Source of the DNA: Antedon mediterranea
Taxonomy: Eukaryota; Animalia; Echinodermata
NCBI RefSeq assembly: GCF_964355755.1
Contig: NC_092674.1
Location: forward strand, 1,364,001 to 1,428,000
Reading direction: 5' to 3'
DNA length: 64,000 nt
This document shows, piece after piece, positions 13,264 through 60,725 of the stretch. The notes below the pieces were generated by a model, which saw nothing but the letters and a program-made list of their open reading frames with translations, ran no database searches and was not told the origin of the DNA. Every line of letters starts with the position of its first letter. The stretch's first letter is position 1. A program made the position numbers and the translations under genes.

Positions 13264-16200
13264 CTATAGCTTTCTCTTTATGGCCTTTTGTTTCTCCTCG
13301 TCTATGATGTCTTGAACAAGTTTAGCAGCATCTTCGGCACAGCCCCATGACATGCTAACACCTCGTCCACCATGTCCATAATTATGAACAATCTACAAAA
13401 TACAAACATTATAATTCATTTACAACAAAACGTGAGGTGGCTTTCCAAAAAGCAAATTCGTTTGGTTTTATTAATTATTTCACAAAGTTAAGTAAAATAA
13501 AAAGGACCTATACTAGCAAACCTTGGTAAATTATTGTATTATGGAGACAATGATCTAAACGGGGCTTTACGGCTGAGTTTCCAAATGTGGTAAATAAATT
13601 TATAATATAAAGTATTTTTCAAGAAAACATTTCTAAACTAAAACCAATAACATATCAAAACTGGCAGTTTAAAAAAAGTACTGTTATATAAAAACTGACA
13701 TTACAGTGTTTCTATTTACTATGGGCCGGCTATAGTGAATAAAACCATAGAGGTAAAACAATCCATGATGAAACTTTGTACGTACCGGTACAATGTTACC
13801 ATCTATGTTGATGGTTTCTCGTTCAAGACGAACAGTTGGCCTGCCTGGTCGCAGTCCTACCCATTCATGATCTAATTCAGCGTGCTACGAAAAAATCATA
13901 TTTCTATTGTAAATGGGCGAATAAACTGCAACTTGCAGCCAACTGGGCTGAATTGTGCACTCCCCAGGGTCCCTTTGTGTCGAGAACTGCCACCAAATTT
14001 CACTAAAATGGTGACTCATTTGGTTACAAAATATTTTCATTGTCCTTTAATTGATTATGGGTGTGCCTTGAAGAAAGATATTCCTTGACTATGGGTCTTA
14101 ATTTCCAAGAAAAATAACTAAACAGAGATTACTAACAGATACACTTGGGAACATGTTTACAGCTCTTCTCCAAATTTCTTCCCTGTCCTCTTTATCGACT
14201 TTTAAATTCCAATTGTTCTTTTGATATTTTCCGCCAACTACAACTGTGTCTCTACTAGAAAGTGAATCAAACAAAAGTTAGAAAAACAAATTGTGTATAT
14301 TTATATATGAGAGGGAAGTCATGATTCGATCTTCATTTGATCATAAGCATGTTATTACTTATTTTAACGCCTTCCGCAGAATAGTCATCTGACTTTTCCA
14401 CCTCATCCGCTCTGCTTTTTCTCATGCTGTGAAGTTCTCCAGAGTTTCTGTCAGGTGCTATGTTCTTTATTTTCTGTAAGTTTTTATAAATGTTGTATGC
14501 ATAGTAGAAATTCTTCAATTATATCAATATTAGAATGTTGGGGATAACAGTGGCTTGTAGCCTGAATTGCACACAAGTGTTGATCAGCCTATCTAAGGAC
14601 GTCCATGCACACAAGTGTTGATCAGCCTATATAAAGACGTCCATGCACACAAGTGTTGATCAGCCTATCTAAGGACGTCCATGCACACAAGTGTTGATCA
14701 GCCTATCTAAAGACGTCCATGCACACAAGTGTTGATCAGCCTATCTAAGGACGTCCATGCACACAAGTGTTGATCAGCCTATCTAAGGACGTCCATGCAC
14801 ACAAGTGTTGATCAGCCTATCTAAAGACGTCCATGCACACAAGTGTTGATCAGCCTATCTAAGGACGTCCATGCACACAAGTGTTGATCAGCCTATCTAA
14901 GGACGTCCATGCACACAAGTGTTGATCAGCCTATCTAAGGACGTCCATGCACACAAGTGTTGATCAGCCTATCTAAAGACGTCCATGCACACAAGTGTTG
15001 ATCAGCCTATCTAAGGACGTCCATGCACACAAGTGTTGATCAGCCTATCTAAGGACGTCCATGCACACAAGTGTTGATCAGCCTATCTGAAGACGTCCAT
15101 GCACACAAGTGTTGATCAGCCTATCTAAAGACGTCCATGCACACAAGTGTTGATCAGCCTATCTAAGGACGTCCATGCACACAAGTGTTGATCAGCCTAT
15201 CTAAGGACGTCCATGCACATAAGTGTTGATCAGCCTATCTAAGGAAGTCCATGCACACAAGTGTTGATCAGCCTATCTAAGGACGTCCATGCACACAAGT
15301 GTTGATCACCCTATCTAAGGACGTCCATGTCAAAATTATTCTAATTCAGTTATTTTACTGATAGATTTAACCTGTTTATGCAATTATTTATCATATTTAT
15401 AAAATTTTTTTTATATATAATGTATTATTAATACTGTACACACCGTATTTATTTATAAACTCCGACATCAAAACAAACTAAAATAATGTAAAATCTAATA
15501 ATTTGTGTTGAGCAGCCAGTTAGCGGCGCTAATTCGTCTGTCCAATCAAAGAAATTGAAAACAAGGAACATTTAAGAATAACAACAATGTTTACCATGGT
15601 ATAATATGGAGAGATGAGCCATCATACTTAGGATCGATGTCAATTACAAAATGTTTCACCCACGGTGCCTTGACCTGAAAAAAAAAAAATTGATTGTCAT
15701 AAATTGAATAAAATAAAGTGTAGGCCTATGATTAGCAAATAGCAGTATTATAAATCTCAAACCCGTATAACCTGATCTCTGATTGGATAAACTGAATCTT
15801 AATGTGTAACTAACCCGTATAACCTGATCTCTGATTGGATAAACAGAATCTTAATTTGTAACTAACCCGTATAACCTGATCTCTGATTGGATAAACTGAA
15901 TCTTAATGTGTAACTAACCCGTATAACCTGATCTCTGATTGGATAAACAGAATCTTAATTTGTAACTAACCCGTAACCTGATCTCTGATTGGATAAATAG
16001 AATCTTAACTTGTAACTAACCCGTATAACCTGACCTCTGATTGGATAAACAGAATCTTAATTTGTAACTAACCCGTATAACCTGACCTCTGATTGGATAA
16101 ACAGAATCATCGTTCACTAGTTTGCCCGCTCCTAATCCAGAGCAATTCACTATGATATCATATTCACCAAATATCTAAAAAAAACATTTAAATAAATTAA

Positions 16201-33800: not shown

Positions 33801-36800
33801 TAAATGAATTATTATAATAATATAAATATATAGATGAGCGTACAATAAAACGTTATAAAAGTAATTCCTCTTCCACTTTATCCTCTAGGTTATTTCCGAA
33901 GGAGATACGTTTGCATTAGATGTTCTAACATACTTCTTAACGGTTCTCTCTATCATCTGTCTTGTTCTGACTGTTTGCACGTACATTTGGCTTCGGTAAG
34001 TTTTTATATTTCATTTTACCCTTACACTTGATTTGCTTTTCGTGGTGGTCTATACCTAAGCCTTGTCTACACTATCACACTTTATGTGACAAAAAAATTT
34101 GATGTGCTCATATATGGACACGATGATGTCAGATCACTACCATAATTAAGGATATCACTACAAATTGGGTACATTACACTTTTTTGTCAAACTAGTTTAA
34201 TAGTGTAGACAGAGCTTTAAGCCTGTTTTCCATCAGGCGAATTTGTTCGCGCGCGCGAATCCAACGTTTCTTCGCAGAGAAAAACAAATTGCGCTACTCT
34301 ATCCACTACAAGAGCAAATAGCTGCTAATTTAGCTGAAGAAGCGAAAAACTCAAGGAACTAGAATTCGTCGCAGAGGCATTTTGAAGATGAAAACAGCTT
34401 TCTCACCGCACCCGCCCCATTATTGCCTTAAAATATAGAAACTAAATGGTTTATTTTCTTCCTTTTACGTTTTACTTTTTTTATTTTAAAGAGCTTGGCA
34501 CCTAAGAAGAAACATCATCCATATAAACTTAGCCATATCACTTGCACTGGCTCAATTACTGTACATTGGCTTTGTCAATGCCACTGCAAATAAGGTAACA
34601 GTATGATACTCATAATAACATCGTTCCAATGTCATGAAGAAATTATCAAAAGTACTGTATTGTTAACTCTAAGCGTGTTGCATTATCAGATTATAATCCG
34701 AATAGACTATACATGTATTTTATAACCGTAGATAAATCACTTTGTATAATGCCTTACAATTAATATCGTACAATACACTGATATTTTCACGTTATTTAAT
34801 CAATATCTGTCCTTGTAGGATATTACTTAAAAGCTTCAACACTTTAAAAATCACATTTTTCATTATATGACCTTCATTGTAATAGACCTATTGTTAAAAT
34901 AAAATGCAGTGTGTTCGAAAAGCACAGTTAAAACTTTCTGTGCTTTTTAGAGTTTTAATTAATTGATTGTGTCGTGACGTAATTAGCTACACGATCACAC
35001 GTAAACGGAAGTACAGTACTTACAATATTAAATGGGAAAGTGTGTGATCTTCAGCTAAAATTTCTTGAATAAAAATAAAAACATCAAAAAATACCCAAAA
35101 TATAACGTCTAGTCCTTCTGAGTTACAAAAATAATTCAATGTTGGACTTATTTGTAGCATGGGTGCACGTTGGTAGCCGTTCTTTTACAATACATGTTTA
35201 CCGTCAGTTTTAACTGGATGTTATTAGAGGGCGTTCATCTTTTGATGATGTCCAACATCAACCTTCATCAAAGGAACCCGAAAAGTTATGTTTACGTCAT
35301 ATCCGGTTGGGGTAAGTTTCATCAACTTTCTCTGGGGATGTTTAGATGTACCAGATGGGTTAATTAAATCTACTTCACTTTTGTTCTAACATGTTTCTAA
35401 TTGTAGTGCCACCTCTTGGAATTGTGTTGATCTCATTTTCATCTAAACCATCTGGTTATGGAACTCAACAATTGTAAGTCTTACAGTATTTGTTAACAGT
35501 TAAGCCTTGTCTACACTATCAAACTTTATGTGACAAAAAATGTGATGTTCCTATTGACATGATGATGTCATATCACTGTTTGGGCACAATTTGTCAAACT
35601 AGTTTGATAGACAGAACTACGTCATGAAATGTTAAATCATAATTGTCTTGTTTTTCTCCGTAGTTGTTGGCTTGACACTTCAACGCCCATTATTTGGGCA
35701 TTTGTTGTACCGATCCTCATGGTGATTGCTGTAAGTACAATTTATTGAATGACGTGGTAGTTAGTGCGTAGTAACATTAACACCAAATGACGTGGTAGTT
35801 GACGCTTAGTAACAGAAATGACGTTGTAGTTGGTGCTTAGTAACACCAAATGATGTGGTAGTTGGCGCGTAATAACACAATTAACGTGGTAGTTGGCGCG
35901 TAGTAACAAAAATGACGTGGTAGTTGGCGCATAGTAACACCAAATGATGTGGTAGTTGGCGCGTAGTAACACAAATGACGTGGTAATTGGCGCGTAGTAA
36001 CACCAAATGACGTGGTAGTTGGCGCGTAGTAACACAAATGACGTGGTAGTTGGCGCGTAGTAACACAAATGACGTGGTAGTTGGCGCGTAGTAACACAAA
36101 TAACGTGGTAGTTGGCGCGTAGTAACACAAATGACGTTTTTTTTGGCGCGTAGTAGGCCTAACACAAATGACGTGGTAGTTGGCGCCTTGTAACACAAAG
36201 GACGTGGTAGTTAGAGCGTAGTAACACAAATGACGTGGTGTAGTAACACAAATGACGTAATAAAGACGTAGTGAAAATACCCATGCAATAATTGTCCTTG
36301 CAGGGGAACACGATTATTCTGCTCGCAGTTATCAGACGATTTATAAATTTAAAAGTAAATGCAACTAAAAGGAAGAAAGAACGAATGAGGTAAGACATGG
36401 AAATTGTTATTTTAGTTGTTGTAGTAGGGGTAGGGCTATGACGTACAAACAAATATGTAGGTACACGTTTACTGCGGTTTCTATGTGGAGATGTTCATGA
36501 TGTAATGAATGTGAAAACTACAAGCTGGCTATTTTCCTTTTTATTCATATTTTTACAGAACCAGTATTCGTGCAGTGTTGTTGATGCTACCCTTGATGGG
36601 ACTGACCTGGATATTTGGCTTGGTGGCGTCTTTTGATGATACACATTTCTTTGCATACGTATTCGTCATCTTTAACTCGTCACAAGTAAGCCTTACCCTG
36701 ACCACCAAATAAAATATTAACAACTGAGCCCGCAACTGAGTATGACGTTTTTACTTGCAGTTTGACTTTTTTGCGTTTTTAGCACTTAAACACAATAAAA

Positions 36801-37365
36801 AAATTTAATCACAATTTTGTCTTTATAGGGAGTATTCATTTTTTGCCAACTTATTCTGCTGAATGATGAGGTTTGTAGTTTTTATACGATTAATAATAAT
36901 AAATATTATTTACGACGGCAATAATTGAGAAAATTAAACTTAATAAATGTATGTATTATTTTATCATTTTGTTTTCACAATTTCAGATCCGGAGAATGTT
37001 TAATCAGAGATACACGAGGCGAAACGTAACAAGCACGTCACAATTGAGTAAAAGTGAACGAAAACACGTTAATCATGTGCGGCTACACAATTATTTCAAA
37101 CCATTACGACTATTGCTGAGTATAAAGCTCTGTCTACACTATCAAACTTTATGTGACAAAAATATTTGTGCCCATATATGGACATGATGATGTCATCACT
37201 ACCATATTTAAGCGTATCACTACGATATTTGGGCACGTCACACTTTTTTTTGTCACATAAATTAGTTTGATAGTGTAGACAGAGCTAGCATTATATACTG
37301 ACTTGCCATCAAATAACATTTACTAATTTCTTCTTTCAGATTTGTTTGAAGAAACAGTTAAATGA
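27851..37365 (+). CDS. Adhesion GPCR: signal peptide, CUB domain, Ser/Thr stalk, GAIN/GPS, 7TM
   Basis: Exons ~27851-27889, 28099-28171, 28545-28904 (CUB), 29532-29591, 29703-30040 (mucin-like), 30361-30552, 31526-31637, 31717-31839, 32179-32365, 32856-32911 (CSFW), 33338-33464 (WSEDGC..CDHLTNFAILM), 33889-33995, 34492-34594, 35158-35311 (FNWMLLEG), 35407-35473, 35664-35730 (CWL), 36304-36389, 36559-36685 (LPLMGLTWIFG), 36829-36870, 36987 onward; terminal exon 37340-37365 is uncertain. Confidence 0.9.
28196..28460. mobile_element. Palindromic MITE-like element; partial second copy at ~12226-12335
   Basis: ttcggtccggcgccggaaaatcta ... tagattttccggcgccggaccgaa; right arm and flank match 12226-12335. 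Confidence 0.75.
28992..29090. mobile_element. MITE family A (TIR aagctctgtctacactatcaaac), PIF/Harbinger-like
   Basis: First of ~16 copies: also ~31388, 34058, 35501, 37124, 40368, 40640, 41680, 42435, 43513, 43939, 45925, 52850, 54416, 58145, 63882. Harbinger assignment inferred from TWA-like flanks and TIR. Confidence 0.85.
29178..29417. repeat. 21-bp minisatellite (cagctctatattatagttcta), ~10 copies
   Basis: Directly visible; explains ORF 29179-29487. Confidence 0.95.
32480..32590 (+). mobile_element. SINE remnant with Deu/Nin-type conserved core
   Basis: gatgggacgtaaagccgttggtccc...gcacgtcaaagaac...aagagtagggga...cccgatgtg resembles the DeuSINE core as recalled from memory. Confidence 0.6.
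34058..34220. mobile_element. MITE family A, full-length copy
   Basis: aagccttgtctacactatca ... tagtgtagacagagcttt. Confidence 0.88.
35748..36260. repeat. 32/34-bp minisatellite (aatgacgtggtagttggcgcgtagtaacac), ~15 copies
   Basis: Fills most of aGPCR intron 35731-36303; explains the overlapping repetitive ORFs. Confidence 0.95.
37124..37287. mobile_element. MITE family A, full-length copy
   Basis: Both TIRs visible. Confidence 0.88.
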
Positions 37366-37389
37366 AGGTAGGCTTGCGCATTTTTTCCT

Positions 37390-37856: not shown

Positions 37857-39826
37857 TCATTCATTCATTCATTCATTCATTTTATTTATACAAAGCAAAT
37901 TTCAAAATATGTTGACAAAGTATGAATCAAGTTAATATAAATGCATTGTATCTGGAGAAAACACAAATAAGCTCAAAGAGCTTTACGACAGGTTCCACCA
38001 AGAAAAAAGTTGTATAAAAAAAAAATTGGATCAACTGTTCATAGACAGAGACAAACAGGGGTTACAGACGGTACATACACTACGCAAGAGACCAAGTATA
38101 GACAAAGACAAGACAAACAAACAAATAAATAAATAAGGGTAAAAGAGGTGTTTGAAATAGGTCAAAATTTGGGTGAAATATTAAGTTTGTTTGTATTTTG
38201 ATATTAGGTATTTTTTGTATTTTGATTTAAATATGATGAAACTATAATCAAATAAAGACTTGTTAAGGGAGTTCCATAGTAAGGGGCCTGTGTGGATAAT
38301 TGAATTTCGGGAAGAGTTTCGATTTAGGTTAGATTGGACGTATTTGTTTGAATTTCGGGTATTATATTTGTGAAGCTCGTTATTTTTTTGAAAAAAATCT
38401 TTTTAAGGTATTAGGAAGTGTGTTATTGGAAAGTCGATACATGAAAAGGGCTGTCTGTAATTTGTTTATGTCAAAGATATTTAGGGTGTTTAGATCATGG
38501 AAAAGCGGTTTAGTATGTGAGAGATAATTTGATTGGGTACATATACGGACTGCCTTCTTTTGGAGTTTGAATAGTCTGTCAAGTTTAGTTGTTTCAGTAC
38601 TAAGCCATGGACAAAGAGTTTGATGCGTTGAATCTGTTGCTGCCCAGACAGTGTTACAATAGAAGAGGTGAGGCAAGATGAGTGTATTGTACAAAGAAGT
38701 GATGATTTTAGGAGGTAATGTAGATTTCAGTTTATTTAGTACACCAATGGTTTTGGAGATATTATTGGAGATTTGAGCTATATGAAGCTTCCAGTTTAAT
38801 TTGTTGTCTATTTGAACACCAAGAAATGATGTGCTTTCAACTTGTTTGATAGGGGTGTGATCGATGTATATATTTGCATTCGGATTGTTATTAGTTTTTT
38901 TGTTAGTGGAGAAGTGAATGTAGTTTGTTTTACTGATGTTAAGGGATAACTTATTTAGTTTGAACCAGTTTGAAACATTGCTGATTTCATTGTTGAAGGT
39001 TCTTGTTAGAGTGTTGAAATCAGGATGGGAAAGGAAGATATTGGTATCATCAGCAAATTGAACATATTAAAAAGAGTTTGAAGCATGGATTAAGTCATTA
39101 ACATAGATTAAGAAGAGAAGGGGGCCCAGAATGGATCCTTGAGGAACGCCGCATGTAACAGGAAGGAGTTCAGAAAAGTGGGAGTTATAGGAAGTAAATT
39201 GCGTTCTATTATTCAGGTAGTTCGTAAGAAGAGAAAGTGGTATGCCTCGGATGCCATAATATTTAAGTTTAGATAGGAGGATTGTATGGTCAATTGTATC
39301 GAATGCCTTAGACAGATCAAGAAATAAGCCAATGGTGTGGTAGTTTTTAGACAAAGCGGAAGAAATTGTGTTTTGGGTATCTAAAAGTGCAAGTTCAGTA
39401 GAATGATTAGGCCTGAAGCCGTATTGATTGCTTTGAAGAATGTTGTGAGAAGAGAGGAAGTTGTAGAGTCTGTTATAAATTAGCCGTTCAAGAATTTTAG
39501 AAAAACAAGATAATAAAGATATTGGACGGTAGTTGGCAAAATAATGGGGATCGTCCTTTTTGAAGATTGGAATGACTTTGGCAGTTTTAAGAGATGACGG
39601 AAATGTACCAGAAGACAAAGAAAGATTGAAAATATGAGAGAGGGGTTTGATAATGAAAGGAGCAATATCTTTGATAACTTTGGGATCGATGTCATCAGGA
39701 CCGGGGCTTTTTCCGTTTTTAAATTTGGAAGTGATTTCAACAATTTCTTTACAAGATGTAGGTGAGAAAAAGATTGAGTTCTTAATTGGGTTCTTAAGAT
39801 AGTTTGAAAAGTTACCAGAGTGAGCA
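37857..39826 (-). mobile_element. 5'-truncated CR1/L2-group LINE, pseudogenised
   Basis: NYRPISLL, QYGFR, LDLSKAFDTIDH, GVPQGSILGPLLF, FADD after an in-frame stop; (gaat)n tail at 37857-37880. Confidence 0.92.
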
Positions 39827-39908
39827 TGAATATTATATGAAATATATTATATAATACATCGTTTTTTAAAAATAGTAAAAAATGTTAAAATAGATCAAAA
39901 GAACAGTC

Positions 39909-41214: not shown

Positions 41215-44200
41215 TTACAATGGTAATTCAAACTGAACGTCTACTGCCGCTTCTTTTGCTAACTCAACAATTGCAGACAACTTGACCACCTACAAAACAA
41301 GATCGAGATACTGAGCAAAACCAGAGGAAAATGTTTTCACTAAAATAACAAGATAAATGTATTCACAAACAGAAATTATTATATACATGACATACACTAT
41401 GTTTAGCCGTCTGGAGAGTCCAAATAAGCCTCAAAGAGATTTGAGACTGGTTCCACCAGGGAGAAAAAGAAAGTTTAGATTGAGCTTTATAGACAGAAAC
41501 AGATTGGAGTTACAGATGATACATATAATACAGAGATAAAGTATGGACAGATGATACATACAACATCACAATTTGTATAGAGTATTATTCTAAAACACAC
41601 ATAACCAAGTTTCTCTTCAATTAAATTTATCCTCATGATGGATCTTCTCTGGGCCTTTTGACAACCATGAGTTTTACTCAAGATCTCTCTACACTATCAA
41701 ACTTCATGTGACAAAAAAATGAGATGCGACCATAATGATATTATATCACTTCCAAATTTGGGCACATCACATTTTTTTGTCAAACTAGTTTTGATAGTGT
41801 AAACAGAGCTTGATTCAAGAGCAAGATGTTTAGGGCTTTGTAACTCACCATTTTAGCTGCCTCATCAAGGTCATTACAGGCAATAATTCTCATATCACTA
41901 GCTGCTATTAGTGCTTTAGCATCTTCAACCTGTGTTCCTATATAAATACAATAAACACATTCAACAGTAGAAGCAAACAAAAGTAAGCTAGCACCAGACA
42001 GAATGGCTTTAAAGAAGATACGAAGACTCCAATGACAGTTGGAATTCACCAATCACACTTCAGGCAAAAGGAAATTTATCCCATCTATGTAATTACAGTA
42101 CCACAAGAGAAATTCATAACTATTATATTAATTTAGTATATCATCTTCTAAATGATATCTTTGATTGTATTCAAATGGTATTTTTGTTAATGTTCTATTG
42201 GTTTAATAAATGTTAACAACTCAAATCAAGATACAGTGTGATACAGTGTGATATTAATGAATACTTAAGTAAATGACTTACTTACCTTGTAACCTACATA
42301 CAATTGGTATTTTAAGACTAAGATCACTGGCAGCTGCTATGATACCTTGAGCAATCACATCACACCGCATAATGCCACCAAATATGTTAACCAATATTGC
42401 ATTCACCTTCAAAACAAACAAACTCATTTAGTAAGTATGGTAGTGATGTGCCCAAATATGGTAGTGATATGCCCAAATATGGTAGTGTTATGACATCATC
42501 ATGTCCCATATACGGGCACATCACATGCAAACATGGCAAGCTGTACATTTGACTTATATATATGAAACAATTAAATAAGCTTGGGAATGAGATCAGATGT
42601 TACGGTAGATTTTTTACTTTCAGTCATTAGTACTTGCATGCCATTTCGCTTGCCCAATTACTTTACGCTTTGTGATGGAATAGATGCTAGCTTAAATGTT
42701 TCTTTTTTGGCAGGGCATATTGGCTAACAATAAATTTAGTCATGGTGATAGATCATTTCTTACATTTGGATCTGATGTAATGAGTTTAAAAGCTTCTTTT
42801 ACTTGGTCTTTAGTTGCACCTCCTCCAACATCTAAGAAGTTAGCTGGTGAACCTTTGTTAAGTTTGATAATATCCATAGTAGACATAGCCAAACCAGCAC
42901 CATTCACTGCAAATAGTAAGTCCATACTTAGTAGAGGTTTTGACAATGTTGAGGAATTATGACCATTAAATTCATTCATTCATGTTTATATGACGGCCCC
43001 AGGATTATCAGCATATGCTATTTAGTGTTACCTTCTTTAAATAAGGTTTAATAAAAATTAAAATAAATTCATCTAATTATTTTTTCTTTTTAGCATGATA
43101 ACATATACATCTACAGCAAATGAAAAAGATTAATCTAAAAAATCGTTGTACAGATAAAAAACAAAAAAAGTTAAAAAAAATATATAGTTAAAACAAGAAG
43201 GCATTCCACTGTACTGTGCATTTTTGACACAATATAAATGACAGATGTTTTATGTGACACTTACCTAGACAACCTATTGTTCCATCAAGTTGAATGTAGT
43301 TCAGATTTGATTTTGATGCTTCTACTTCTCGTGGATCTTCTTGAGTATTGTCTCTCAATTTATGAATATCTTTTTGTCTGTATGACGCATTGTCATCAAA
43401 GTTGATTTTACAGTCCATGCATATAACTGAAGAAAGAACCATTTTAATTGATAATCAAGTTAAAACAGATAAGAAAAGAGAACATACATTCATACTACAC
43501 AGAAACAGTGCTTAAACTCTGTCTACACTATCAAACTAGTTTGACAAAAAAAGTGCGATGTGCCCAAATATGGTAGTGATATGATATCATCATGTCCATA
43601 TTATGGGCACATCACATTTTTGTCACATAAAGTTTGATAGTGTAGACAGCATTATATCAGATAAAAAGAGATCATACATTCATAATACACCGCAACAGTT
43701 TAGTAAAACAAATATTGGAATCTTGTGGCCAGTGGGACCAGTATTAGTTATAGTATGTACAGTAGTAATTCAATTGAAACCTACCTTTGCCTGTATTATC
43801 CTCAGCAAGTGGGTTAATCTCCAACATTGTTGCATCGTATTTTATGAGAAGATTATACAGTTTAATAAAGGTATCAGCAGCCTACAAACAAATTAAGTAT
43901 TTTTGTCATAATCCCAAAATACTATTTCATAGCAGGGTATAGCTTTGTCTACACCATCAAAGTAGTTTGACAAAAAAAGTGTGATGTGCCCAAATATGGT
44001 AGTAATAATATGTTTAAATATATAAGTGATATTTTTCAATTCAATTCAAGTTAACATTTATTTCTTTCAAAACAAAATAATATGACATCATCGTGTCCAT
44101 ATTATCTGCACATCACATTTTGTTGTCCCATCAAGTTTGATAGTGTAGACAAAGCTTTAGAACAACTACTGTATTTCAGTCAAATAATAACAATTATACA

Positions 44201-47063
44201 TTACAACATACTTACATCTTCAATACATGCTCCTGAAAAACCTATTCTTTTTGCTACATCTATTGCTACTTCTTTTGATAATCCTAGGAATAATACAAGT
44301 GTGCAAAGTGTTAAATTCTACCCTACATTTCCATTGGACTCTAATTTCAAATTATTTACTAATCAGCAGAATGCAGAGAGGGATGAAAACATAGCTTAAT
44401 ATCTGATTGAATGTCAGAATGAATATTAGTAAATACTGTAGATGCAACAGCCTACCTTCATTGATATCAATTCCTTGTTTAACAATAGAATCTGGACTTT
44501 CTTGAGCTATTTCTTCAATATTAACTCCTCCTTCTGAACTTGCAATAATTACGGGACCCTACAATAGCAAATAGATATACTGTAATGTTAACTTTTATTA
44601 CAGCTAGAAGATGAAATGTAGATTTACACCAACTATATTATAAAATAGAAGATCTTGAAAAACATTTAAAAGTAGATGAGAATAATGTTCTGAAAGATTA
44701 TGAATGTAGTCTATAAACAATCAAACATAGGAACTCAACATTTACAACTCAAACCTACCATATATGATCTATTTAATGTTAGGTGTGAATGCATACTTAC
44801 CATATATGATCTATCTAATGTTAGGTGTGAATGCATACTTACCATATATGATCTATCTAATGTTAGGTGTGAATGCATACTTACCATATATGATCTATTT
44901 AATGTTAGGTGTGAATGCATACTTACCATATATGATCTATTTAATGTTAGGTGTGAATGCATACTTACCATATATGATCTATTTAATGTTAGGTGTGAAT
45001 GCATACTTACCATATATGATCTATCTAATGTTAGGTGTGAATGCATACTTACCATATATGATCTATTTAATGTTAGGTGTGAATGCATACTTACCATATA
45101 TGACCTATCTAATGTTAGGTGTGAATGCATACTTACCATATATGACCTATTTAATGTTAGGTGTGAATGCATACTTACCATATATGATCTATCTAATGTT
45201 AGGTGTGAATGCATACTTACCATATATGATCTATCTAATGTTAGGTGTGAATGCATACTTACCATATATGATCTATCTAATGTTAGGTGTGAATGCATAC
45301 TTACCATATATGATCTATCTAATGTTATTGCAAAGTAATATTCACGTCTTGAATACATTCGTTCACACACTAAAACCTGAAATAACAAATAAACTATTAT
45401 ATATTAGCTATCACTGTAGATGAATTATTTACAGAAATTATACAGAGATTTACTACTTACTACTACTTTTAATAACTTACAGAATTGCATGGCCTGCCAA
45501 TAGCTCCGGTTTGCTTCGTTATTAACTTGTTTCCAATCATCTGAGATGCTAATTCACGTACTTCTGTTGGGCTACACAAAGATTATTTAATAATAACATC
45601 TTCAAAATATTTTTTAGAGTTGGAAAATATAAATCACTATTGGATTTAATTTTGTAATTCCAGAAATACCAATTAACTCATTGTTGTAGTATTGATTAAA
45701 AAAATGTTGTATAGGTATTATGAACAAAAATACATACGAGAAAGCTAATTTAACACCTCCTTTAAGACCACTCTCAAAGTAACCTTTGCCCCTTCCACCA
45801 GCCAGTACTTGTGCTTTGACCACTACATCATTCCCTCCTGTACAAAATAAAAAAATACACATAAAGTTGCAGATCTTAAATACTGTAGATATATTTATTT
45901 ATTTTCATAACTACGCCGCTTCTAGAGCTCTGTCTACTACACTATCAAACTTTATGTGATAAAAAATGTCATGTCATATCACTACCATGTAAACATACCA
46001 CTATCATGTAAACATATCACTATCATACTTGGGCACATCATTTTTTTTTGTAACACTAGTTTGATAGTGTAAACAGAGCTTTACAATATAATTTTGACAC
46101 CAAACATCGTAAACCTTCTTACCAAGATCTGTTGCTGCTTGAAATGCCTCATCTGGTGTCATAGCAACCTTTGACCCAGGGATTGAGACACCTGCTTCTT
46201 GCAGTAGGTTGAAACTTAGGTACTCATGAAGCGATAAATGTCTACGCTGCTGTTGTCCACACAGAAACCCATTACCAATGGCTGCAGCGACCTAGGAAAG
46301 ACAAAGTAAAATGTACAAACGATATAAATTCAATGTCAACTGAATGATTACTCAACAAGAATATGTTTGGTCTATCATCCCTGGTCTATTGCTAATTTTT
46401 TTTTCTAATATTAACATTAATTTTAAAGAAATTTATTTAATTAATAATAATATTAATAAATCCAAAGGCAAATTACTGACAAAATTCAGTGGCTGGATCT
46501 CAATGGAGATACAAAAAAAAGCTAGGCCTAAATCAAAACGATAAAGTAAACAGCCAGAAAAGTTAGCAGAGCTTTCGGGCAACACTGGCCTACTAGTACT
46601 ATAGACTAGGCCTAGCCCTTTATCAGAAATTAATAAAAATAAATAATAAATTAATGTGATAAAAATATAAAATAGATAGTAGGCCTATATTGTTTGTCAT
46701 CACTATTTCAATAAATAGAACTTGAGCCTACCTAATACTGGCTGGTTGTTGCGTGTCCAAATGTGCACTTTCTTAACTTATGTCATAATGACAGGCTAGG
46801 CCTAGGCCTCCCTACGCACTTTCTACTTCTCGCGACCGGAGCGAATCCCGTTGTCAGCCAGCTACGATTTGCGGTCATATTAATTTAGGTTAGTATGCCT
46901 AGGCCTAGACACTATTTTCACTAAATTTTGTAAAAATAAAATGCAAGAATATTTCCAAAATAATCCTATAATCAGTAAATCATAATCTTACCTTTGTATG
47001 ATGCTGTAATCCCTGTTTTGCAGCAATCAATCTGCTCCCGAGTCGACATATTGAAGAAGCCAT
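41215..47063 (-). CDS. SUCLA2: Succinate-CoA ligase [ADP-forming] beta subunit, mitochondrial, 13 coding exons
   Basis: Exons ~47063-46992 (transit peptide), 46291-46123 (LSLHEY), 45837-45738 ([12 protein letters not shown]), 45571-45481, 45376-45305 ([13 protein letters not shown]), 44558-44456 (GGVNIEE), 44282-44215, 43881-43785 (EINPL), 43426-43265 ([10 protein letters not shown]), 42906-42764 ([19 protein letters not shown]), 42406-42286 ([10 protein letters not shown]), 41937-41849, 41289-41215 ([17 protein letters not shown]). The C-terminal extension resembles SUCLA2 rather than SUCLG2. Confidence 0.95.
43513..43650. mobile_element. MITE family A copy
   Basis: Both TIRs visible, opposite orientation to the 37124 copy. 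Confidence 0.85.
44756..45327 (-). repeat. 42-bp minisatellite spanning the SUCLA2 exon 5/intron junction, 14 donor copies
   Basis: Unit = 23 nt exon tail taacattagatagatcatatatg + 19 nt intron head gtaagtatgcattcacacc. Confidence 0.97.
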
Positions 47064-48292: not shown

Positions 48293-51200
48293 ATGGGAAA
48301 ATTAAAGCCACTTCTACGTCTAAAAATCGATGAACTATTTCTACGGTGGTTGAGTGAAGCGGACACGCAAGAAACCTTGCGTGAAAACCTATCACTCATC
48401 AAAAAGGGAGAAAACATAGACTACATTCCGTCGTCAGCATTTCAGTATAAGAGCCATGGTAGCCCTGCATCACCCTTACTCAGGGTCTCATCACCAACAA
48501 CTCCTCCTTGTTCACCAATTCCAAACAGTACTCCAAGTCCTCGGAGACGAAGCACTAACAAACTGTCAACATCATTATCCAAGTCACTCACTGCTAAGGT
48601 AAGTAACAAACCACACATTGTATTAATTCTAGTATAGTAATAACCTAACATGATGGTATGAAATTAATACTTATTTTATTAATGCTGCAACAAATCTATG
48701 TATTGAAAATGAAAGATGATTGTTGTGCTGTTTACATCCAATCTTGTGTTCATAGAAAATTATTAAAACAGTATTTTGTTTAAATATTAGACTGACTAAT
48801 TTGAAGGAAATAATTGTAACCCCTAACATAATAATAGAACATTCCAAAATATTTGACCAATCATTAGACAGTATTTAGTGACTTAATTCAATATAACTAA
48901 TGTAATTTACTAATAGCTCATTTTCTTGAATCGTATTAAATACATAGGAATTTATATAATTATTACTTTGTTCAACCCTAGATAGTTTATTTGGCACTAG
49001 ATGTTGCATACTCTGGTATACAGTACAATAGTGCCACACATTTGTGAAATTCAAGCTTATTAATTAAAGTTAGTAAGCATTTAATGATTGTTGAGTTATT
49101 TGCATTCGTTGATATAAATAAGATATTAAGTTTTCGTGCTAAGTGCTAAGATTAAACTTGCTTCGTCTTTTCAGGCTTGACCCTAAAGAGTTTGATATTG
49201 CTCTTTAATTGGCATGATAGGAATTTTACTAGCTTGCAGGCATGTTCTAATCTAGCTCAAATTCCTCAGGCGGCGGTCTTACTTTAAAACAGTTTATATT
49301 TATCACCTGCCACAATATTAAACACATAAACGACCAAGTAAATCATTTATTGTAAAAGATGTTCTGTTTATGCTTGTATAAATAAAAGATATTTGACATT
49401 TTTAGGATTTCAAGAGAAATGATATTTGATAATGTAATCCATGCTCCATTCCCTACAAATTAAATTCAAGCTAAATTATGACACAAAATCACCAATATTA
49501 AATTATTATTATGCTATCTGAGTATAATCCCACCACTAATTTTTTTTCTCTAAATTTCATACTCAGGTCCCCCTGTGGTCTCCCTACTTGACCATACGGA
49601 CATTTTTTTTTCTTTTTGTAAGATTATTTTGGTAAACTAAATATCGAAAAATGGTTTTTCCTTTTTTCTTGGAAAAACCAGTCACTGCAACATTTTGTTT
49701 GTTCTCTCATAGATACTGTACTTAAATAAACGTTATGTTGCTAGTTAAAGATGTATTGTTTCCTGTTTCCACGGAGACAACTTTCAATTACAGTATTTGT
49801 CACATGACCCAAAAAGTTGATTGAGGTCAAAGTGATTAACATTCTTACTCACTAACATTACCACATACTGTACTGATCCTACACTCAAATAGCCTCCAAT
49901 AGTATTAATAATAATAATAATCACTGAACATTATGCACCATTTTTATTACAATTTTTTTTTTTAATATAACACATTAGAGACACTGTTTAATTTTCTATT
50001 TATTCAATACTATACTTTGATTAAAATATTGTTAGCAGAATTTCTGGGGATAATTTTATGACACAATAAAGATAATAACAATAATTTGATATCGTGCAAT
50101 ATTAGATAATTGACTGTCTGTCACTGTTATTATTTGATAAATTAGGCTACCACATGCGGAGACAACTGTTAGTTAAAATCTATTAATGACCCGATTTTAA
50201 ATAGACTATGAAATGAAAGATGATGATGTTACAAATGGTAACCAGATCTAATCACCGACTTCTGTCATAGGCCTCTCATCATGCTTGCTTCCTTATAAGG
50301 GCATGCCATCTAGGCCTATACTGTAGCTTTAGCAAGCAGAGTGGATCAGTCCAAATGGTAAATTTTAAGGCCATTGAGATCTTATGAATCAAGTGAAACA
50401 GCTGGTACATGAGGCCTACAAAGAGGCATACTGTTAGTATCAGAAGGGAGGACATACTTCAATCATTGATATTTTGTTTTTTTATTGTTGTTGAATCAAA
50501 AGTGAATTTGTATTATATTGATGGTGACTACATGGGTACTGCATCAATTAACGTTAACTGTTAGCAACAATGTTTATAATTTTCCAGAGAAGCAAAGACG
50601 ATTTTGTTGATTTTTTTCTGCAATAGAAAGCTTTTCAATTGATTTGATGTCATCAGCGATGATTGATGTTTTTATTTGTGGTTTTGTACAATGTTGGACT
50701 CCAATCCAGGATGTAATTTGTCATGTATGTAAGGTGATGAAATGATTGACACATGGTGTGACTGTTTAGATTCTAAGGAATCACCAATCAATGATTGCAT
50801 ACGCTGTTTATTAGTTGTATGAACTCTTACAATACAAACACTAAATGTAGCTGTTACTCAAAGAACTTGAAATATTTTTTGCAGGCATTTTGTGTCAAAG
50901 ACTAAAGCCCACTTTGTGTTTCATGTTTCAATTTTGTCCTACACATCGTTATTGCATAAACTAATTGTATCAACGTCATTATGCATTTTAATACCCTACA
51001 AACATGTCAACTGTATTGCTGTTATTCTTATAGAATTTTAAAGTTTTTTAATTTGTTTTGTCATTAACATTGTTTTTCTTGATTGTTAATTGTGGTTTTT
51101 GCTGCAACCGGACTATTAGTTATTGAACAATAAATAGTCGTTTTCAACGTGTAATTGTGGTGTTTTGTAAATGCCAGCCATTCTTAATATGCAGACATGT

Positions 51201-54200
51201 CCTCAGCCAGCACCATATCACCTTGTATTTTCATCTCGCAACATTAATGAGAGTTTTTTCATCGATCAACGACCGGTTCGTATTGTTCACCATTTTCATA
51301 AGACTTGTCCGTTTCAGAAGCAAGACTCGTCTGGCAAGCCGTGTGACGCCGTTCATTTCGGATTCTGTTCTGATGTTTTTACTTCCAAAGATTTAATTCT
51401 GGATGTTAATCAAAATTGTATCATTAGTAAATCTAATAACAATATCAAGGTAGGCATTCATCAAATTTATGATCATGACACAGATGTAGCTCGAGAAATT
51501 TAGGGGTGGGTGGCACAATTCAAAACATAAAAAGATAACCTTTCAGCAAGAATTTGAATAGGTCCCCAGCCACACAGTAGTTACATCATTGCATGAGTTT
51601 AAATTAGCTTAGTTTTTTCTAACTTATTTAAATGCAATTGATTTTGTAACTGTAGACATCCATTTCTGAAATAAAAGTAAAATGAATGAATGAATTAACT
51701 AATTATTAAAGCCCAGTGTACTTTTTGCTTAGCAAAATTTATATAAGATAAGATAAGATAAATCTTTATTGTCATGAACACAACCAGGCGAACATGAAAT
51801 TGGTTTTCCTTGATGCTTAAAAACACATACAATATATAAAACATTAAAAATATCAATACAATACATTAAAACTATATACAGTAGTAAACAAACTATCTTT
51901 GAAATGTTGAGTTGGAAACATGAATAGAGTTGTGGACAAAGAACAGCCTATAGAAAAACAAGAAAAATAGTTCAATAATAACGTCATAAATAACAGTTAA
52001 CACAAAGAAAATTTTGTATTATTTATAGTAACATGGTCCGAAATATCAACATGTAAATGGCAATATATTTACTTAAGTTATATACAAGTGCTTTTATTAT
52101 AAAAGTTTTTCAAAGCCAACTACTTCATTAATAATATCATCACATGTAGTGATGTGATGAGTAATGTAATTGTCATGTATGTAGTAAGCCTTTACAAAAG
52201 ACAAGTTGTAACTCATTAAATATTTATCAAAGAATTTCTCGTGTGAATAGGAATGTTGCTCTCAACATCACAAAGTATGATAGTTAAGTTGTGATACTAC
52301 ATTTTAGAAATTTTTTGTTTTTCTTATTTATTTTTAAACATTTTGATTATTATATTAATAAAAAAAATTATCTTTTGTGTATGGTATTTGTAGTAAATAC
52401 TATTATTCGGGAAAATCCTGCAATTGTAAGTAATTCTTAATAATAAACAGAATGGTTATAATAATAATGTCCTTGTATGGAGGATAAAAACATGGTACTG
52501 TAATATTAGTGACCAGGCACATGGACTAATGTTTTCTAAGTTGAAACTTAAAAAAGATGGTATAATTAGTTCCATGTAATGACTTATTAAGTGATTACAA
52601 CAAGGTAAGCCACCAGTAGTGACTTATGTGTACATGTGGGATATGAAGGTCAACAAACTTTACAAGGGTTTTATTCCCAGTGTGATCTTATCTGGTGCAA
52701 TAAGTACCATCCTACCAAACTTAAGAAAGTTAGTGGACAATTAAATGTTCTATCCAAATTCATTAATCTGTAATTGTATTTTTTGCTAGTAGTAAAACCT
52801 TAAATTGATAGTAGGAACCAACCGACCAAATTTGAATATGGATATATCTATAAAAAATGTGATGTGCCCAAATATGGTAGTGATATACCCAAATATGGTA
52901 GTGATATGACATCATGTTCATATATGGGCACATCACATTTTTTTGTTATAATAAAGTTTGATAGTATAGACAGAGCTTAAGATTTAAGTTTCTAGACACC
53001 CTTTAGGAACAATGGGAAGAGATTTGGTTGATACTGTATGTACAAATAAGGAGTGAAATTGCCTGTGCTCCGTCTACAGATCCATACAGCTTAAATCATT
53101 TCCTGACAGACACTGTGTGTAACTCTGAGACACACATGGCACCTATTCACTAAATCTCAATGTTGTGATTTTAAACATTTTAAAAAACCTCAAATATATT
53201 TTTTTTCTGGGGTTTGAATGGGCCAAGAATTAATTTGTTTACCTATCTCTCATACTGTATGTGTACTGAGTAAATTGTATTGTATTGAAACAGTAATGTT
53301 TATTACATGAAAAAAAAGGGTAGCAATCAGATTAAATGCATTTCTAATTAATAATTCTAAAATATAATTGAAAACTTCTTATACAACATATCCTGCAAAT
53401 AAACTATAATTAGTCCGTGCGAGTTTAAAGTTTAAAGCCAAAAATTCTGTAATATTTATAATTATTAGATATGAATATTCTCATTCATCCAGTTAGTACT
53501 AAGTCCAGTGGATTACATTAATATCAAAACAAAAATAAATGTTATGTCATCTATTTTTTTTTTAGCTTTTTGAAGATCGTAAAGCAGCTGAGAGTAACCG
53601 GCAACCAGTAAACGTTCCACAGTTTTACTTTCCGTACGGCCGACCGGTTGACGCGGGGGTAAATGAAAAGGTGTTGGAAAAAGTGTCAGAGGTTTTTAGA
53701 TCATTACAAGTTATTAGAAAACATGAAATGGATGAGTTAACATTGGTATGTTGGTAGGCCTACATTTTCACTTTTATTATAGTTATGCAATTATGGAATT
53801 GTGGCTTGGTGGTTATGATGTTTGGCTACCAATCCAATGGTCCTGGGGTCAAGTCCTGTCATGTGTCAGGATTTTTTTCTTTCTAATGACAAGAAACTCC
53901 ACACCCAAAGACTTGTAATAAGACTTTGTTTATGTAGAGCATCTTGTGTATATGTTTGTATATGACCCAAGATTACCACCGTTAAGAAGGATAGTGAATA
54001 AATTTGCTTATGGTTATCCTTGCCTAAATATATTTTTTTAAAGTCAAATTCTAAAGTTTGAGACAGATTTTTTGAATGCTACGACAAAACTGATTTATTT
54101 GTAAGGATACATGCATTCAGTTTGCTTTATTGATTTAAAATATTTTTTGTTTTATCGTGTGAATAAAAAATACAAATACAGAAATCATCAGAAGTCATTG

Positions 54201-56220
54201 ACCTCATATTTATTACTACAGTATCATTCATTACAGGCATGTGGCTGCCCTAAATACTGGAGGATGGCCCTCTATCACGCAGCTGGAGGAAAGGATGATG
54301 TACCCCTTACACAAGAAATGTTTGTAACAATGTGGCAGAGGTTTGTAATACATTCTTTAATGTACAGTATATTCATTTTTTCAACCAATTGCAGCACCTT
54401 TCGATTGCATAAAGTTAAGCTCTGTCTATATTATCAAACTAGTTTGACAAAATAGTGTGATGTGCCCAAATATAGTAGTGATATGACATCACCACATCCA
54501 TATATGGGCACATCACATTTTTTGTTACATAAAGTTTGATAGTATAGACAGAGCTTTAGAAACTATTTTATTATTTATTTATTAATTATCAATCAACATC
54601 ATCTTTCTGAATCATCTTTTATTGAGTCTGAACTTAACATTGAAATTTGTTTTTATATTTCTTTTTCCCATTTGTGCATTTAAAAGTTGACCTCTAATTG
54701 ACCTTATCAGTTTCTGAGCCATCTTTTATATTTATTGCATCTGAACTTAACATTATTTTTTGTAATTTCTCTTACAGAGTGATTTCTGAATGCCATGACG
54801 ATAGTTCAAGATTATTTCGTCTTTTAGTCAAACCCAAGTGCAATTACATATCAGCTGAAGACTGGTACCCAATGATTCAGGTAAATATTTAAGAATACCC
54901 CTTGATACCGGTCTCAATTACATATCAGCTGAGGACTGGTACCCAATGATTCAGGTAAATATTTAAGAATACCCCTTGATACCGGTCTCAATTACATATC
55001 AGCTGAGGACTGGTACCCAATGATTCAGGTAAATATTTAAGAATACCCCTTGATACCGGTCTCAATTACATATCAGCTGAGGACTGGTACCCAATGATTC
55101 AGGTAAAGAACACCCCTTGATACCGGTCTCAATTACATATCAGCTGATGACTGGTACCCAATGATTCAGGTAAAGAATACCCCTTGATACCGGTCTCAAT
55201 TACATATCAGCTGAGGACTGGTACCCAATGATTCAGGTAAATATTTAAGAATACCCCTTGATACCGGTCTCAATTACATATCAGCTGAGGACTGGTACCC
55301 AATGATTCAGGTAAATATTTAAGAAAACCCCTTGATACCGGTCTCAATTACATATCAGCTGAGGACTGGTACCCAATGATTCAGGTAAAGAACACCCCTT
55401 GATACTGGTCTCAATTCAATCACCCCATCGGTAAACAACTCCTTCCAGTTTGTTTGAACCGACCTTTGACCAAAGTTGTTTTAGTGGTCTGTAAAGGAGA
55501 CTTCATCATTTTTGTCACAGAAGTCTGAATGTGGTTTTAGTTTAAAAGTCATTTAACGTCACTTAAGTGACCAATGTAATGTCATTACCATTGTCATCAT
55601 CATTTATAATCATCATAATATTTATCATCTTTTATTCTGTTCGTTATCATCAATTACCATTCCATTTTTTGTGAATTTTAAAGAATCAAAAGTACATAAG
55701 TGTAGAGTAATAAGTTACTACCGTATATCCTCTGGTATAATCCCACGCCTCTAGAACATGAATTAAATTACTACCGTATATCCTCTGGTATAATCCCACG
55801 CCTCTAGAACATGAATTAAATTACTACCGTATATCCTCTGGTATAATCCCACGCCTCTAGAACATGAATTAAATTACTACCGTATATCCTCTGGTATAAT
55901 CCCACGCCTCTAGAACATGAAGTATACCAGGGAAAGCCTGGTTCAATAAAAAAATTATTGGTAAAGCATTTCTTGTAAAAACTCATATGAACTATCTAGA
56001 GAGTGGCCTACATCCAGACCAAAAGTGAATACTGGGACTATACCCACCCAGGGATATGCCTGTTTTTGAAATCAGACATAAAGTAGGGGGTGGGATTATA
56101 CCTGAGGATATACGGTATTAGCCAATCATTTGCTTTGTTTTGCAGGATGTGGTAAATTCTCATCCTGGATTGTCATTCCTGCAGGATGCTCCTGAATTCC
56201 ATTCTCGTTATATCCACACG
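48293..56220 (+). CDS. PPP2R3: PP2A regulatory subunit B'' (PR72/PR130/PR70 family), 5' part; continues past the window
   Basis: Exons 48293-48598 (LKIDELFLRWLSE), 53566-53745 (VPQFYFPYGRP), 54237-54340 (ACGCPKYWR), 54778-54880 (CHDDSSRLF..WYPMIQ), 56146-56220 (DVVNSHPGLSFLQDAPEFHSRYIHT); phases consistent. Confidence 0.92.
51171..51449 (+). CDS. Candidate alternative first coding exon of the PP2A B'' gene (93 codons)
   Basis: ATG, 93 open codons, phase-0 donor aag|gtaggc compatible with the acceptor at 53566. Confidence 0.45.
53800..53990 (+). mobile_element. tRNA-derived SINE remnant
   Basis: A-box-like gtggcttggtggtta and B-box-like gggtcaagtcc; no intact cloverleaf. Confidence 0.5.
54416..54558. 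mobile_element. MITE family A copy
   Basis: Both TIRs visible. Confidence 0.85.
54841..55416 (+). repeat. 74/67-bp minisatellite spanning a PP2A B'' exon/intron junction, 8 donor copies
   Basis: Unit = 40 nt exon tail caattacatatcagctgaRgactggtacccaatgattcag + intron head gtaaa(tatttaa)gaataccccttgataccggtct. Confidence 0.97.
55715..56117. mobile_element. MITE (TIR taccgtatatcctc..gtataatcccac) with its left end tandemly repeated 4 x 53 bp
   Basis: Right TIR gtgggattatacctgaggatatacggta at 56090-56117; left TIR units at 55715, 55768, 55821, 55874. Confidence 0.85.
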
Positions 56221-56979: not shown

Positions 56980-58038
56980 TTAAACTTTGACCTTTCCACC
57001 ATTGTTACCGCCCTCATGGACATCCGTATCCTCTGCTTGTTTGTCATCTTCAGGATGAATGGTCTCTGTTGGCAAATCTGTTGAAAGCTCAATGATCACT
57101 TCAACCACATCTTCTTCAGCTATCTCTTCCTCTGCTATCTCTTCCTCTGTTTCTTCCACTACCTCCTCGATGACCTCTTCAACGACTTCTTCAACAATTT
57201 CTTCAACCATTCCTTCCAGAGCTTCCTCCACTGCCGCTTCAACAGCTTCTTTTACTTGGTCAACGACCTCATCAACGATTCTTTCCTCGATCTCTTCTAC
57301 CATTGTCGTGGCATCAGTGCTTGAGATTTCAATTTCTTCAGTTTCTTCTGTAGTGGATACCTGATCAATCTCTTCCTCTTCTAATTGTGTAGCTGTTTCT
57401 GGTTTTGTTTCTTCACTGTCTGATGTACTTAACAGCAAAGATGTGCGAGGGCGAATCATTTTGTCTTGTGTGGCATCTTCCTGCTCTTCTTCAGATGATG
57501 ACTCTGAGCTAGATTCTGGTGATGCAATTGTAGCTGTCACATCTTCTGTGTCAACTTCTTCCGACGACTCTTCCGATGATGATGATTCTGAGCTAGATTC
57601 TGTTGCTGCAATTGTAGCTGCTGTAGCATCCTTTGTTTCAATCTCCTCTGACTCTTCTGAGCTAGACTCTGTTGATGTGATTGCTGCTGTACCTTCCTTT
57701 GTTTCAATCTCCTCTGACTCTTCTGAGCTAGATTCTGTTGATGTGATTGCTGCTGTACCTTCCTTTGTGTCAATCTCCTCTACCTCTTCCTCTGAGCTTG
57801 ATTCCATTGGTGCATTTGTTGAGTCTTCTACCTCTAGGACCACGGTGACCATTTCTTCCACTTCAGTCATTGTCACTACTTGTTCATTGTGTTCGATTTC
57901 AAGCTCGTCGCCTTGTCCTTCCACTATTGCTAGCGTTTCATATTCGTCTGCAGCTAATGTTTCACCAGTTGGTACAGGTAAGCCTCTTGCCACAAACAAC
58001 AGGCAATTGCTGACGACTATTAACCAAAATGTATTCAT
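56980..58038 (-). CDS. Nested antisense gene: secreted, highly acidic Glu/Ser/Thr-rich protein (352 aa)
   Basis: Acceptor ttttgtgcag at 58049, ATG at 58038, signal peptide MNTFWLIVVSNCLLFVARG, 22-aa internal repeats with SSSEE, single coding exon; AATAAA at ~56555 and ~56385. Confidence 0.8.
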   Translation of the reverse strand: MNTFWLIVVSNCLLFVARGLPVPTGETLAADEYETLAIVEGQGDELEIEHNEQVVTMTEVEEMVTVVLEVEDSTNAPMESSSEEEVEEIDTKEGTAAITSTESSSEESEEIETKEGTAAITSTESSSEESEEIETKDATAATIAATESSSESSSSEESSEEVDTEDVTATIASPESSSESSSEEEQEDATQDKMIRPRTSLLLSTSDSEETKPETATQLEEEEIDQVSTTEETEEIEISSTDATTMVEEIEERIVDEVVDQVKEAVEAAVEEALEGMVEEIVEEVVEEVIEEVVEETEEEIAEEEIAEEDVVEVIIELSTDLPTETIHPEDDKQAEDTDVHEGGNNGGKVKV

Positions 58039-58780
58039 GTTTAGAAATCTGCACAAAATTTAAAAAAATAAAAAGTTAATTTATGCTGCAATTCCTTTTG
58101 TAAGTAATATTTTAAAGAAATAATAATCTATGATTCATGAATCTAAAACCCTGCCTACACTATCATACTTTATGTGATAAAAAATGGACATAATGTTATA
58201 TTTGGGCATATTATAATACCATATTTTGGCACATCATACTTGTTTTGTCAAACTAGTTTTATAGTGTGGACAGAGATTTAAGTGTATTTTAATACTGCCC
58301 TCTATAGTTTGTCTTATGGAAACTTAACTTAATAAATATAATTCTGATTGGGAACTTGTTTGTGTTCAAAAGAAAATCTATTGAAACTTTTAATTTAAAC
58401 ATGGTCAGGTGATTAGGTCAAATATAAGTCAACAAAGGTCAGGAAATTGACCTGCCTGCCAAACCAATAAACTGAGTTGTTAATTACATGGCTGCACCTT
58501 TCATTTTATTGACCTAATTACAAGTTGACTTCTTTGGAAAAACAATTAAAAGGCAGGTGTTAATACAGTAGATGTAAATAATGTCAACAGGTGTTAATAG
58601 ATGTAAATTAAGCTGTCTGTCTGTCAGGATATTGAAATAATGAGTAGGAGGTTTGCTTTGAACAGAAAACAAAGTTCTGAATTATGAATTCTCTTAATTT
58701 GTAAAATTTGTTATTTCACAGCGAAATAACTTGCCAATTACAGGATATATAAACTATTTTATGATTTATCATGCTTTTAA

Positions 58781-60027: not shown

Positions 60028-60725
60028 TACACTGTGTACATACAGTGGCGTAACGGCTATGAGCACTTACTGGCTACACCCAGGGACACTGTGTACATAC
60101 AGTGGCGTAACTGCTATGAGCACTTACTGGCTACACCCATGTACACTGTGTACATACAGTGGCGTAACTGCTATGAGCACTTACTGGCTACACCCAGGTA
60201 CACTGTGTACATATACAGTGGCGTAACTGCTATGAGCACTTACTGGCTACACCCAGGTACACTGTGTACATACAGTGGCGTAACTGCTATGAGCACTTAC
60301 TGGCTACACCCAGGTACACTGTGTACATATACAGTGGCGTAACTGCTGTGAGCACTTACTGGCTACACCCAGGTACACTGTGTACATATACAGTGGCGTA
60401 ACTGCTATGAGCACTTACTGGCTACACCCAGGTACACTGTGTACATATACAGTGGCGTAACTGCTATGAGCACTTACTGGCTACACCCAGGTACACTGTG
60501 TACATATACAGTGGCGTAACTGCTATGAGCACTTACTGGCTACACCCAGGTACACTGTGTACATATACAGTGGCGTAACTGCTATGAGCACTTACTGGCT
60601 ACACCCAGGTACACTGTGTACATATACAGTGGCGTAACTGCTATGAGCACTTACTGGCTACACCCAGGTACACTGTGTACATACAGTGGCGTAACTGCTA
60701 TGAGCACTTACTGGCTACACCCAGG
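60028..60725. repeat. 57/59-bp minisatellite, 12 copies, covering flank plus a CAGTGGCGTA element terminus
   Basis: Unit tacactgtgtacat(at)acagtggcgtaactgctatgagcacttactggctacacccagg. Confidence 0.95.

Follow-up and report, generated by a model that had tools for sequence, protein, structure and literature searches.

Which of 14 nearly identical splice donors ends exon 5 of the SUCLA2 gene of Antedon mediterranea, a crinoid echinoderm, and what does the choice mean for the enzyme that the gene encodes? The window, i.e., the whole 64-kb stretch of DNA analysed in this study, carries a tandem repeat that spans the boundary of this exon and reiterates the donor at a spacing of 42 nt. An earlier note on this DNA had framed the matter as an either/or, in which a core enzyme of the TCA cycle selects the first donor or is produced as a ladder of isoforms, and this framing is right. 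Judged from the sequence, the first donor is probably the one mainly used, the 13 later donors being near-silent passengers in intron 5 and the enzyme having its normal length of 453 aa.

The SUCLA2 gene and its donor array

The gene is encoded on the minus strand from 47063 to 41215, where the coding span (41215..47063) is divided into 13 exons by GT-AG introns of 104-746 nt. The product of the first-donor gene model is identical at 453 of 453 residues to XP_071949423.1 (P0001), the annotated succinate-CoA ligase ADP-forming beta of A. mediterranea. Human ADP-forming (SUCLA2) chains score about 620-625 bits and thus outscore the GDP-forming chains (about 408 bits), so that by sequence comparison the gene is SUCLA2, which encodes the ADP-forming beta subunit; the identification given in the earlier note agrees with both results. 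The product contains the ATP-grasp_2 and Ligase_CoA domains, and the exon junction, M168|G169, lies within ATP-grasp_2 (residues 45-251), where the note had placed any insert. Human SUCLA2 (PDB accession numbers 6g4q_B and 9swj_D; Pfam PF08442 and PF00549) aligns over its full length without a gap across the junction, and under first-donor splicing the human and Antedon enzymes do not differ at the protein level. SUCLA2 (start codon at 47063, -) and a PP2A B'' gene (start codon at 48293, +) face each other head to head, with 1.2 kb between the two start codons. Many introns contain a short palindromic element that is MITE-like (41700-41810, 42440-42510, 43510-43650, 43950-44150, 45930-46080, and elsewhere); its contig depth exceeds that of single-copy sequence by a factor of thousands.

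The SUCLA2 minisatellite (44756..45327, -) was defined with Tandem Repeats Finder and by comparison of its units. It has a period of 42 nt, 13.6 copies, 98% matches, 0% indels, and a score of 1088, which is far beyond chance for a repeat. On the minus strand, each 42-nt unit is composed of 23 nt of the end of exon 5 and 19 nt of the start of intron 5, and the boundary itself is inside the first unit. Exon 5 (45305..45376, -; 72 nt, phase 0-0) ends at the first donor, and the junction at 45305 agrees with both P0001, which reads DRSYM-GPVII at this point, and human SUCLA2. It is followed by intron 5 (44559..45304, -), which is 746 nt long, or 200 nt when the 13 extra units are subtracted, and by exon 6 (44456..44558, -; 103 nt); the downstream exon that the earlier note had given as 44456 is therefore present at 44558-44456, with 44456 as its far end. 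The first intron bases of the 14 donors are at 45304 minus 42k (k = 0-13). The donor sequence is ATG|GTAAGT in 13 of them and ATG|GTAGGT in the last, and the splice site is intact in the later units, which comprise 12 identical donors and 1 variant donor. These 13 downstream pseudo-donors occupy 44753..45265 (-), with first intron bases from 45262 to 44758. Array coordinates and the 42-bp spacing of 14 donors, as first noticed, were reproduced exactly.

The units vary at only two sites: a G/A difference that gives Asp in 8 copies and Asn in 6, and a synonymous change that is found in 2. The SUCLA2 reading frame is open across every copy, and each later donor adds 14 residues, VSMHSHLTL(D/N)RSYM. 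The 14 splice models range from 453 to 635 aa and contain no internal stop in any case (14/14), as expected from the claim of a stop-free frame adding up to 182 aa, whereas full retention of intron 5 leads to a stop codon shortly past the array. The escape from nonsense-mediated decay (NMD) that had been claimed fits the lack of a premature stop in all models, from which NMD immunity would follow. Two plus-strand frames that are also open across the array were considered as an opposite-strand gene and rejected as the same chance effect of the 42-nt unit. Matches of the read-through repeat frame to NCBIfam (porin, YidC, and others) are far below the cut-off, with 0 stretches, and were set aside as repeat noise.

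The contigs of all three readable sequencing runs (X2, X3, and X4) end at 44785, 30 nt inside the SUCLA2 array, and the contig depth is raised in the bin where they end. Because of this raised depth and the ends inside the array, we infer that the unit is truly repeated in the reads and that the ends at 44785 represent a graph branch. It is very unlikely that the array is an assembly artefact or that its copy number is strongly inflated. The near identity of the units (98%) and the lack of a spanning contig among the contigs listed are compatible with such an artefact, as is the origin of X2-X4, which are from one sample that is possibly the source of the assembly itself; the two variant sites, however, occur in a patterned mix across the units, all three sets of contigs break at the same point with raised depth, and a rough conversion of depth, which is no true copy number, gives 12, 16, and 7 copies for X2, X3, and X4, respectively.

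Choice among the 14 donors

A donor matrix trained on the 27 mapped donors of the window, which range from 4.0 to 12.4 bits, gives 11.1 bits for each of the first 13 SUCLA2 donors and 9.6 bits for the last; the first 13 cannot be separated by donor sequence. The predicted unpaired probability at 37 C is 0.35 for the first donor, 0.35-0.47 for those with k = 1-12, and 0.16 for the last. Structural masking of the later donors was not seen for k = 1-12, as folding gives them no lower accessibility than the first and buries the last alone. Since the first 13 donors are equal in strength and the first has no folding advantage, the first donor, if it is the winner, wins by position.

Several observations bear on whether it is the winner. 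The annotated SUCLA2 protein is built on the first donor, although such a prediction is guided in part by homology and could overlook minor isoforms. P0001 is the one member of its 90% cluster and has no isoform tag in its name; for the adjacent PP2A B'' gene, by contrast, one cluster contains two annotated isoforms. When exon 5 plus two repeat units was used as a query, 3 proteins were obtained from 165 candidates and the repeat part was unmatched in all of them, a blank that is weak evidence. At the protein level, Asp164 is changed to Asn in 6 of the 13 later copies, at a column that is Asp or Glu in 78 of 78 homologues, and in a second array of the window, which is located in a D-aspartate oxidase-like gene, Gly is changed to Asp in 4 of 5 scored later copies. 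Such drift of coding positions in the later copies of both arrays is as expected for intronic sequence.

The surroundings of the junction were examined in an alignment-based fold prediction (49 sequences, mean pLDDT 83), while a single-sequence fold (pLDDT 39) was set aside. Strands 153-164 and 169-175 are connected by a predicted turn of four residues, and the junction falls where this turn ends. Of the 83 rows of the homologue alignment (80 bacterial and 2 starfish homologues), 5 were dropped as wrong-frame picks, leaving 78 in-frame rows (75 bacterial and 3 echinoderm). Residues 156-177 are exactly 22 residues with no indel in 78/78 rows, and position 164 is Asp or Glu and position 165 is Arg in all of them; the homologues were picked for closeness to the query, which biases the set against indels.

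A reading in which several donors are substantially used would yield SUCLA2 isoforms that are longer by 14 x n residues and immune to NMD, and would let the length of the allele tune the amount of normal enzyme. We consider this reading unlikely. It would draw on the absence of a stop from 14/14 models, on 13 identical donors that are among the stronger ones of the window, on the location of the insert at the end of the predicted turn, and on the extra sites that are used in human CBS and 6-16, as described in PMC1557585. These leaky human genes, however, are described there as using just the next two sites, and the length of the turn is invariant among the homologues, as noted above; in addition, an insert isoform was not found in the protein collection (weak evidence), an open frame is within chance (0.19; see below), and both other donor-spanning arrays of the window are out of frame. 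The expectation in the earlier note that an isoform ladder is likely is not supported, because the sole protein annotated for SUCLA2 is spliced at the first donor and out-of-frame arrays occur in two genes nearby.

Dominance of the last, intron-proximal donor, in which case the array would be a coding repeat and the real protein would have 635 aa, is very unlikely. This donor is plausible at 9.6 bits, GTAGGT is in use at another SUCLA2 intron, and the 200-nt intron that would be left is typical of the gene. On the other hand, the exon would have to be 618 nt long and 182 residues would have to be inserted into an ATP-grasp hairpin whose length is invariant, the annotated product is 453 aa, and the last donor is the weakest of the 14 and the least accessible in the fold; in both of the other genes with such arrays, the frame would be shifted or stopped if the last donor were used.

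We propose that sequence at the junction of exon 5 and intron 5 was first duplicated locally and that the array then grew through slippage or unequal crossing-over. The first donor would be chosen by position, either through definition of the 72-nt exon or because donors are selected first come, first served in the 5'-to-3' direction, as in the case of human F7. Donor strength and RNA structure would not be deciding factors, the later units would be spliced out within the 746-nt intron 5, and the in-frame length of the unit would be due to chance. By analogy with CBS and 6-16, a leak of a few percent to donors 2-3 may occur, which would give NMD-immune proteins with 14-28 extra residues in the beta-hairpin turn. 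Among the points that run counter to first-donor use are the extra sites used in CBS and 6-16 and the discordant results with duplicated globin donors (see below); in addition, judged from the fold model, a short insert at the predicted turn might be tolerated, and the F7 rule is from mammalian cells and not from an echinoderm with introns of 100-700 nt.

Sister arrays and the open frame

Two further donor-spanning arrays, which the earlier note had missed, are present in the same window. The D-aspartate oxidase-like gene (P0021) contains a 52-nt minisatellite of 6.8 copies (15760..16108, -) with 7 donors, the first of which is at the exon end 16073, and the PP2A B'' (PPP2R3-like) gene (P0007 and P0013) contains an array of 74/67-nt units (54841..55416, +) with 8 donors, the first at the exon end 54880. 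Both annotated proteins use the first donor. In the oxidase array, the later donors lead to a frameshift or stop in 6 of 6 cases, and in the PP2A B'' array, the extension from each of the 7 later donors includes a stop at codon 4. The frameshifts and stops in both genes point to tolerated repeats with the first donor winning, and conserved genes of A. mediterranea thus tolerate donor-spanning arrays; NMD could hide a leak, however, as these out-of-frame arrays could leak heavily while NMD clears the products, and they are therefore no proof of first-donor fidelity.

The in-frame, stop-free condition of the SUCLA2 array is unremarkable. Hypothetical duplications of 15-45 exon bases plus 10-40 intron bases at the other 11 SUCLA2 donors were in frame and stop-free in 1995 of 10571 cases (0.19), i.e., about one in five by chance; the stop-free fraction of the in-frame duplications was 0.57, and a 23+19 unit stays open at 8 of 12 SUCLA2 donors. 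That two of the three donor-spanning arrays are out of frame is in line with chance. With a null of 0.19, one nonsynonymous and one synonymous variable site, and both sister arrays out of frame, the frame was not found to be open beyond chance or under selection.

The array set of the window (n = 14; periods from 19 nt upwards, with a minimum of about 3.5 copies) was delimited by thresholds chosen after seeing the data. Three of the 14 arrays span a donor, and 3 of the 27 protein-mapped donors carry one. With 27-60 donors assumed, 0.2-0.5 donor-spanning arrays are expected, and the probability of at least two besides SUCLA2 is 0.01-0.08, which in this one 64-kb window is a hint of enrichment. 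Mapped acceptors are spanned by 0 of the 14 arrays (coordinates compared by eye), and 3 donors versus 0 acceptors are too few cases for any claim of a donor bias. Arrays with units of 20-75 nt abound in the region, and other long, young minisatellites at 14568-15329 (38 x 20), 35778-36239 (31 x 14.6), 55711-55921 (53 x 4), and 60028-60725 (59 x 12) are intronic and touch no mapped boundary.

The SUCLA2 (44758-44748, -) and oxidase (15762-15755, -) arrays both end three bases past a donor-like GT. GGTTTGAG is found at or just past the end of both, and in both the intron part of the unit continues with AGT. These common end features may be due to chance. Because both arrays end past a donor-like GT, the ancestral donor could be the first or the last. 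A template for the intron part of the units was sought outside the arrays; the best match had 4 mismatches in 16 nt for SUCLA2 and 2 mismatches in 13 nt for the oxidase, and both were judged to be chance. A 5-nt direct repeat, noted by eye, bounds the PP2A B'' array, as would be expected after slippage.

Other features were observed in these genes and around them. The annotated form of the oxidase P0021, 287 aa long, lacks two exon-like stretches at 24679-24961 (-) that match its 349-aa paralogue P0022; the annotation of P0021 may be incomplete, or the two stretches may be skipped in splicing. At 16990-18083, a 7.8-kb oxidase intron (16175-24012) contains part of a reverse transcriptase, and at 21007-22946 it contains broken frames that resemble transposons (both by eye). 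An alternative first coding exon of the PP2A B'' gene is located at 51171-51449, and one intron of this gene contains, on the opposite strand (56980-58059, -), a frame of 350 residues that is rich in Glu, Ser, and Thr, begins like a signal peptide, and matched no Pfam family. The many-exon gene at 27850-37370 (+), which we take by eye to be adhesion GPCR-like, has a CUB-like exon, a Ser/Thr stalk, a GPS-like motif, and membrane helices; its 20 donors were placed by eye, with 2-3 uncertain, Pfam gave no match for the one exon tested, and a protein search gave only distant unnamed matches. An 842-residue open frame, possibly of a transposon, and two LINE-like reverse-transcriptase frames are located at 3917-6445, 7258-9093, and 38380-39846 (all on the minus strand; by eye).

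Known donor-spanning repeats and meaning of the array

The SUCLA2 array belongs to a known class, which includes the human F7, CBS, 6-16, LMNB2, and PDGF minisatellites and the "mirages" of lancelets. According to PMC1557585, the first monomer of the 37-bp VNTR in intron 7 of human F7 spans the exon-intron boundary, the most upstream site alone is used, and inactivation of the sites one at a time activates the next one. In-frame pseudo-sites are not favoured there, and a premature stop is avoided by the fifth and sixth pseudo-sites only. The same paper describes LMNB2 (100 bp) and PDGF intron 4 (81 bp) as using the authentic site alone, and 6-16 intron 2 and CBS intron 13 as using two pseudo-sites besides the authentic site; it also relates that experiments with duplicated globin donors disagreed over which copy wins. 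SUCLA2 resembles the F7-type arrays in that the intron contains further identical copies of the donor, all in competition for a single acceptor, with similar unit size and copy number. The exon bases per unit are different, i.e., 23 in SUCLA2 and 4 in F7, and, unlike those of F7, the SUCLA2 pseudo-sites are all in frame and stop-free, in an invertebrate host with short introns. The earlier note had presented the array as a surprising dilemma for a core enzyme; first-donor choice in the same anatomy had already been described and tested (PMC1557585), and an open frame arises by chance at 0.19.

Lancelet mirages, as described in PMC3087553 and PMC3902484, are tandem duplications of exon-intron boundaries in Adh3, the globins BflGb6/BflGb9, troponin C, and PGBD5 that are variable in length and apparently leave splicing undisturbed; in PMC3087553, their origin is called unclear and acceptor-side cases are included. 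Mirages and Antedon arrays have in common invertebrate deuterostome hosts, units with a substantial amount of exon sequence, several affected genes in each genome, and terminal units that escape homogenisation. Lancelet splicing is reported to be normal, and the Antedon annotation uses the first donor. The Antedon arrays differ in their crinoid echinoderm host, in the presence of three cases within 40 kb that are all donor-side, and in a SUCLA2 unit that is a multiple of three. Reports of donor-spanning arrays in crinoids were not found in our literature search, which covered few subscription journals, and the passages of PMC10078293 that were consulted contain nothing about reiterated donors. 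The window gives a hint that crinoids, like lancelets, often make donor-spanning repeats.

As biology, the SUCLA2 array is probably a tolerated repeat, and its value is that of a natural test of 5' splice-site choice. We regard it as improbable that the array is a mirage that NMD cannot hide, with later donors really used, a SUCLA2 ladder bearing 14-residue repeats in the ATP-grasp hairpin, and a heritable control of TCA-cycle flux through the length of the array; were a ladder true, a splice-donor minisatellite would have been caught becoming a coding repeat of a core enzyme. As the donors are in frame, all products should survive NMD, and RNA-seq junction counts would therefore be free of the usual NMD bias. 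Such counts could tell first-come selection or exon definition from intron-proximal choice in an invertebrate, with the two out-of-frame arrays 10 and 29 kb away serving as controls.
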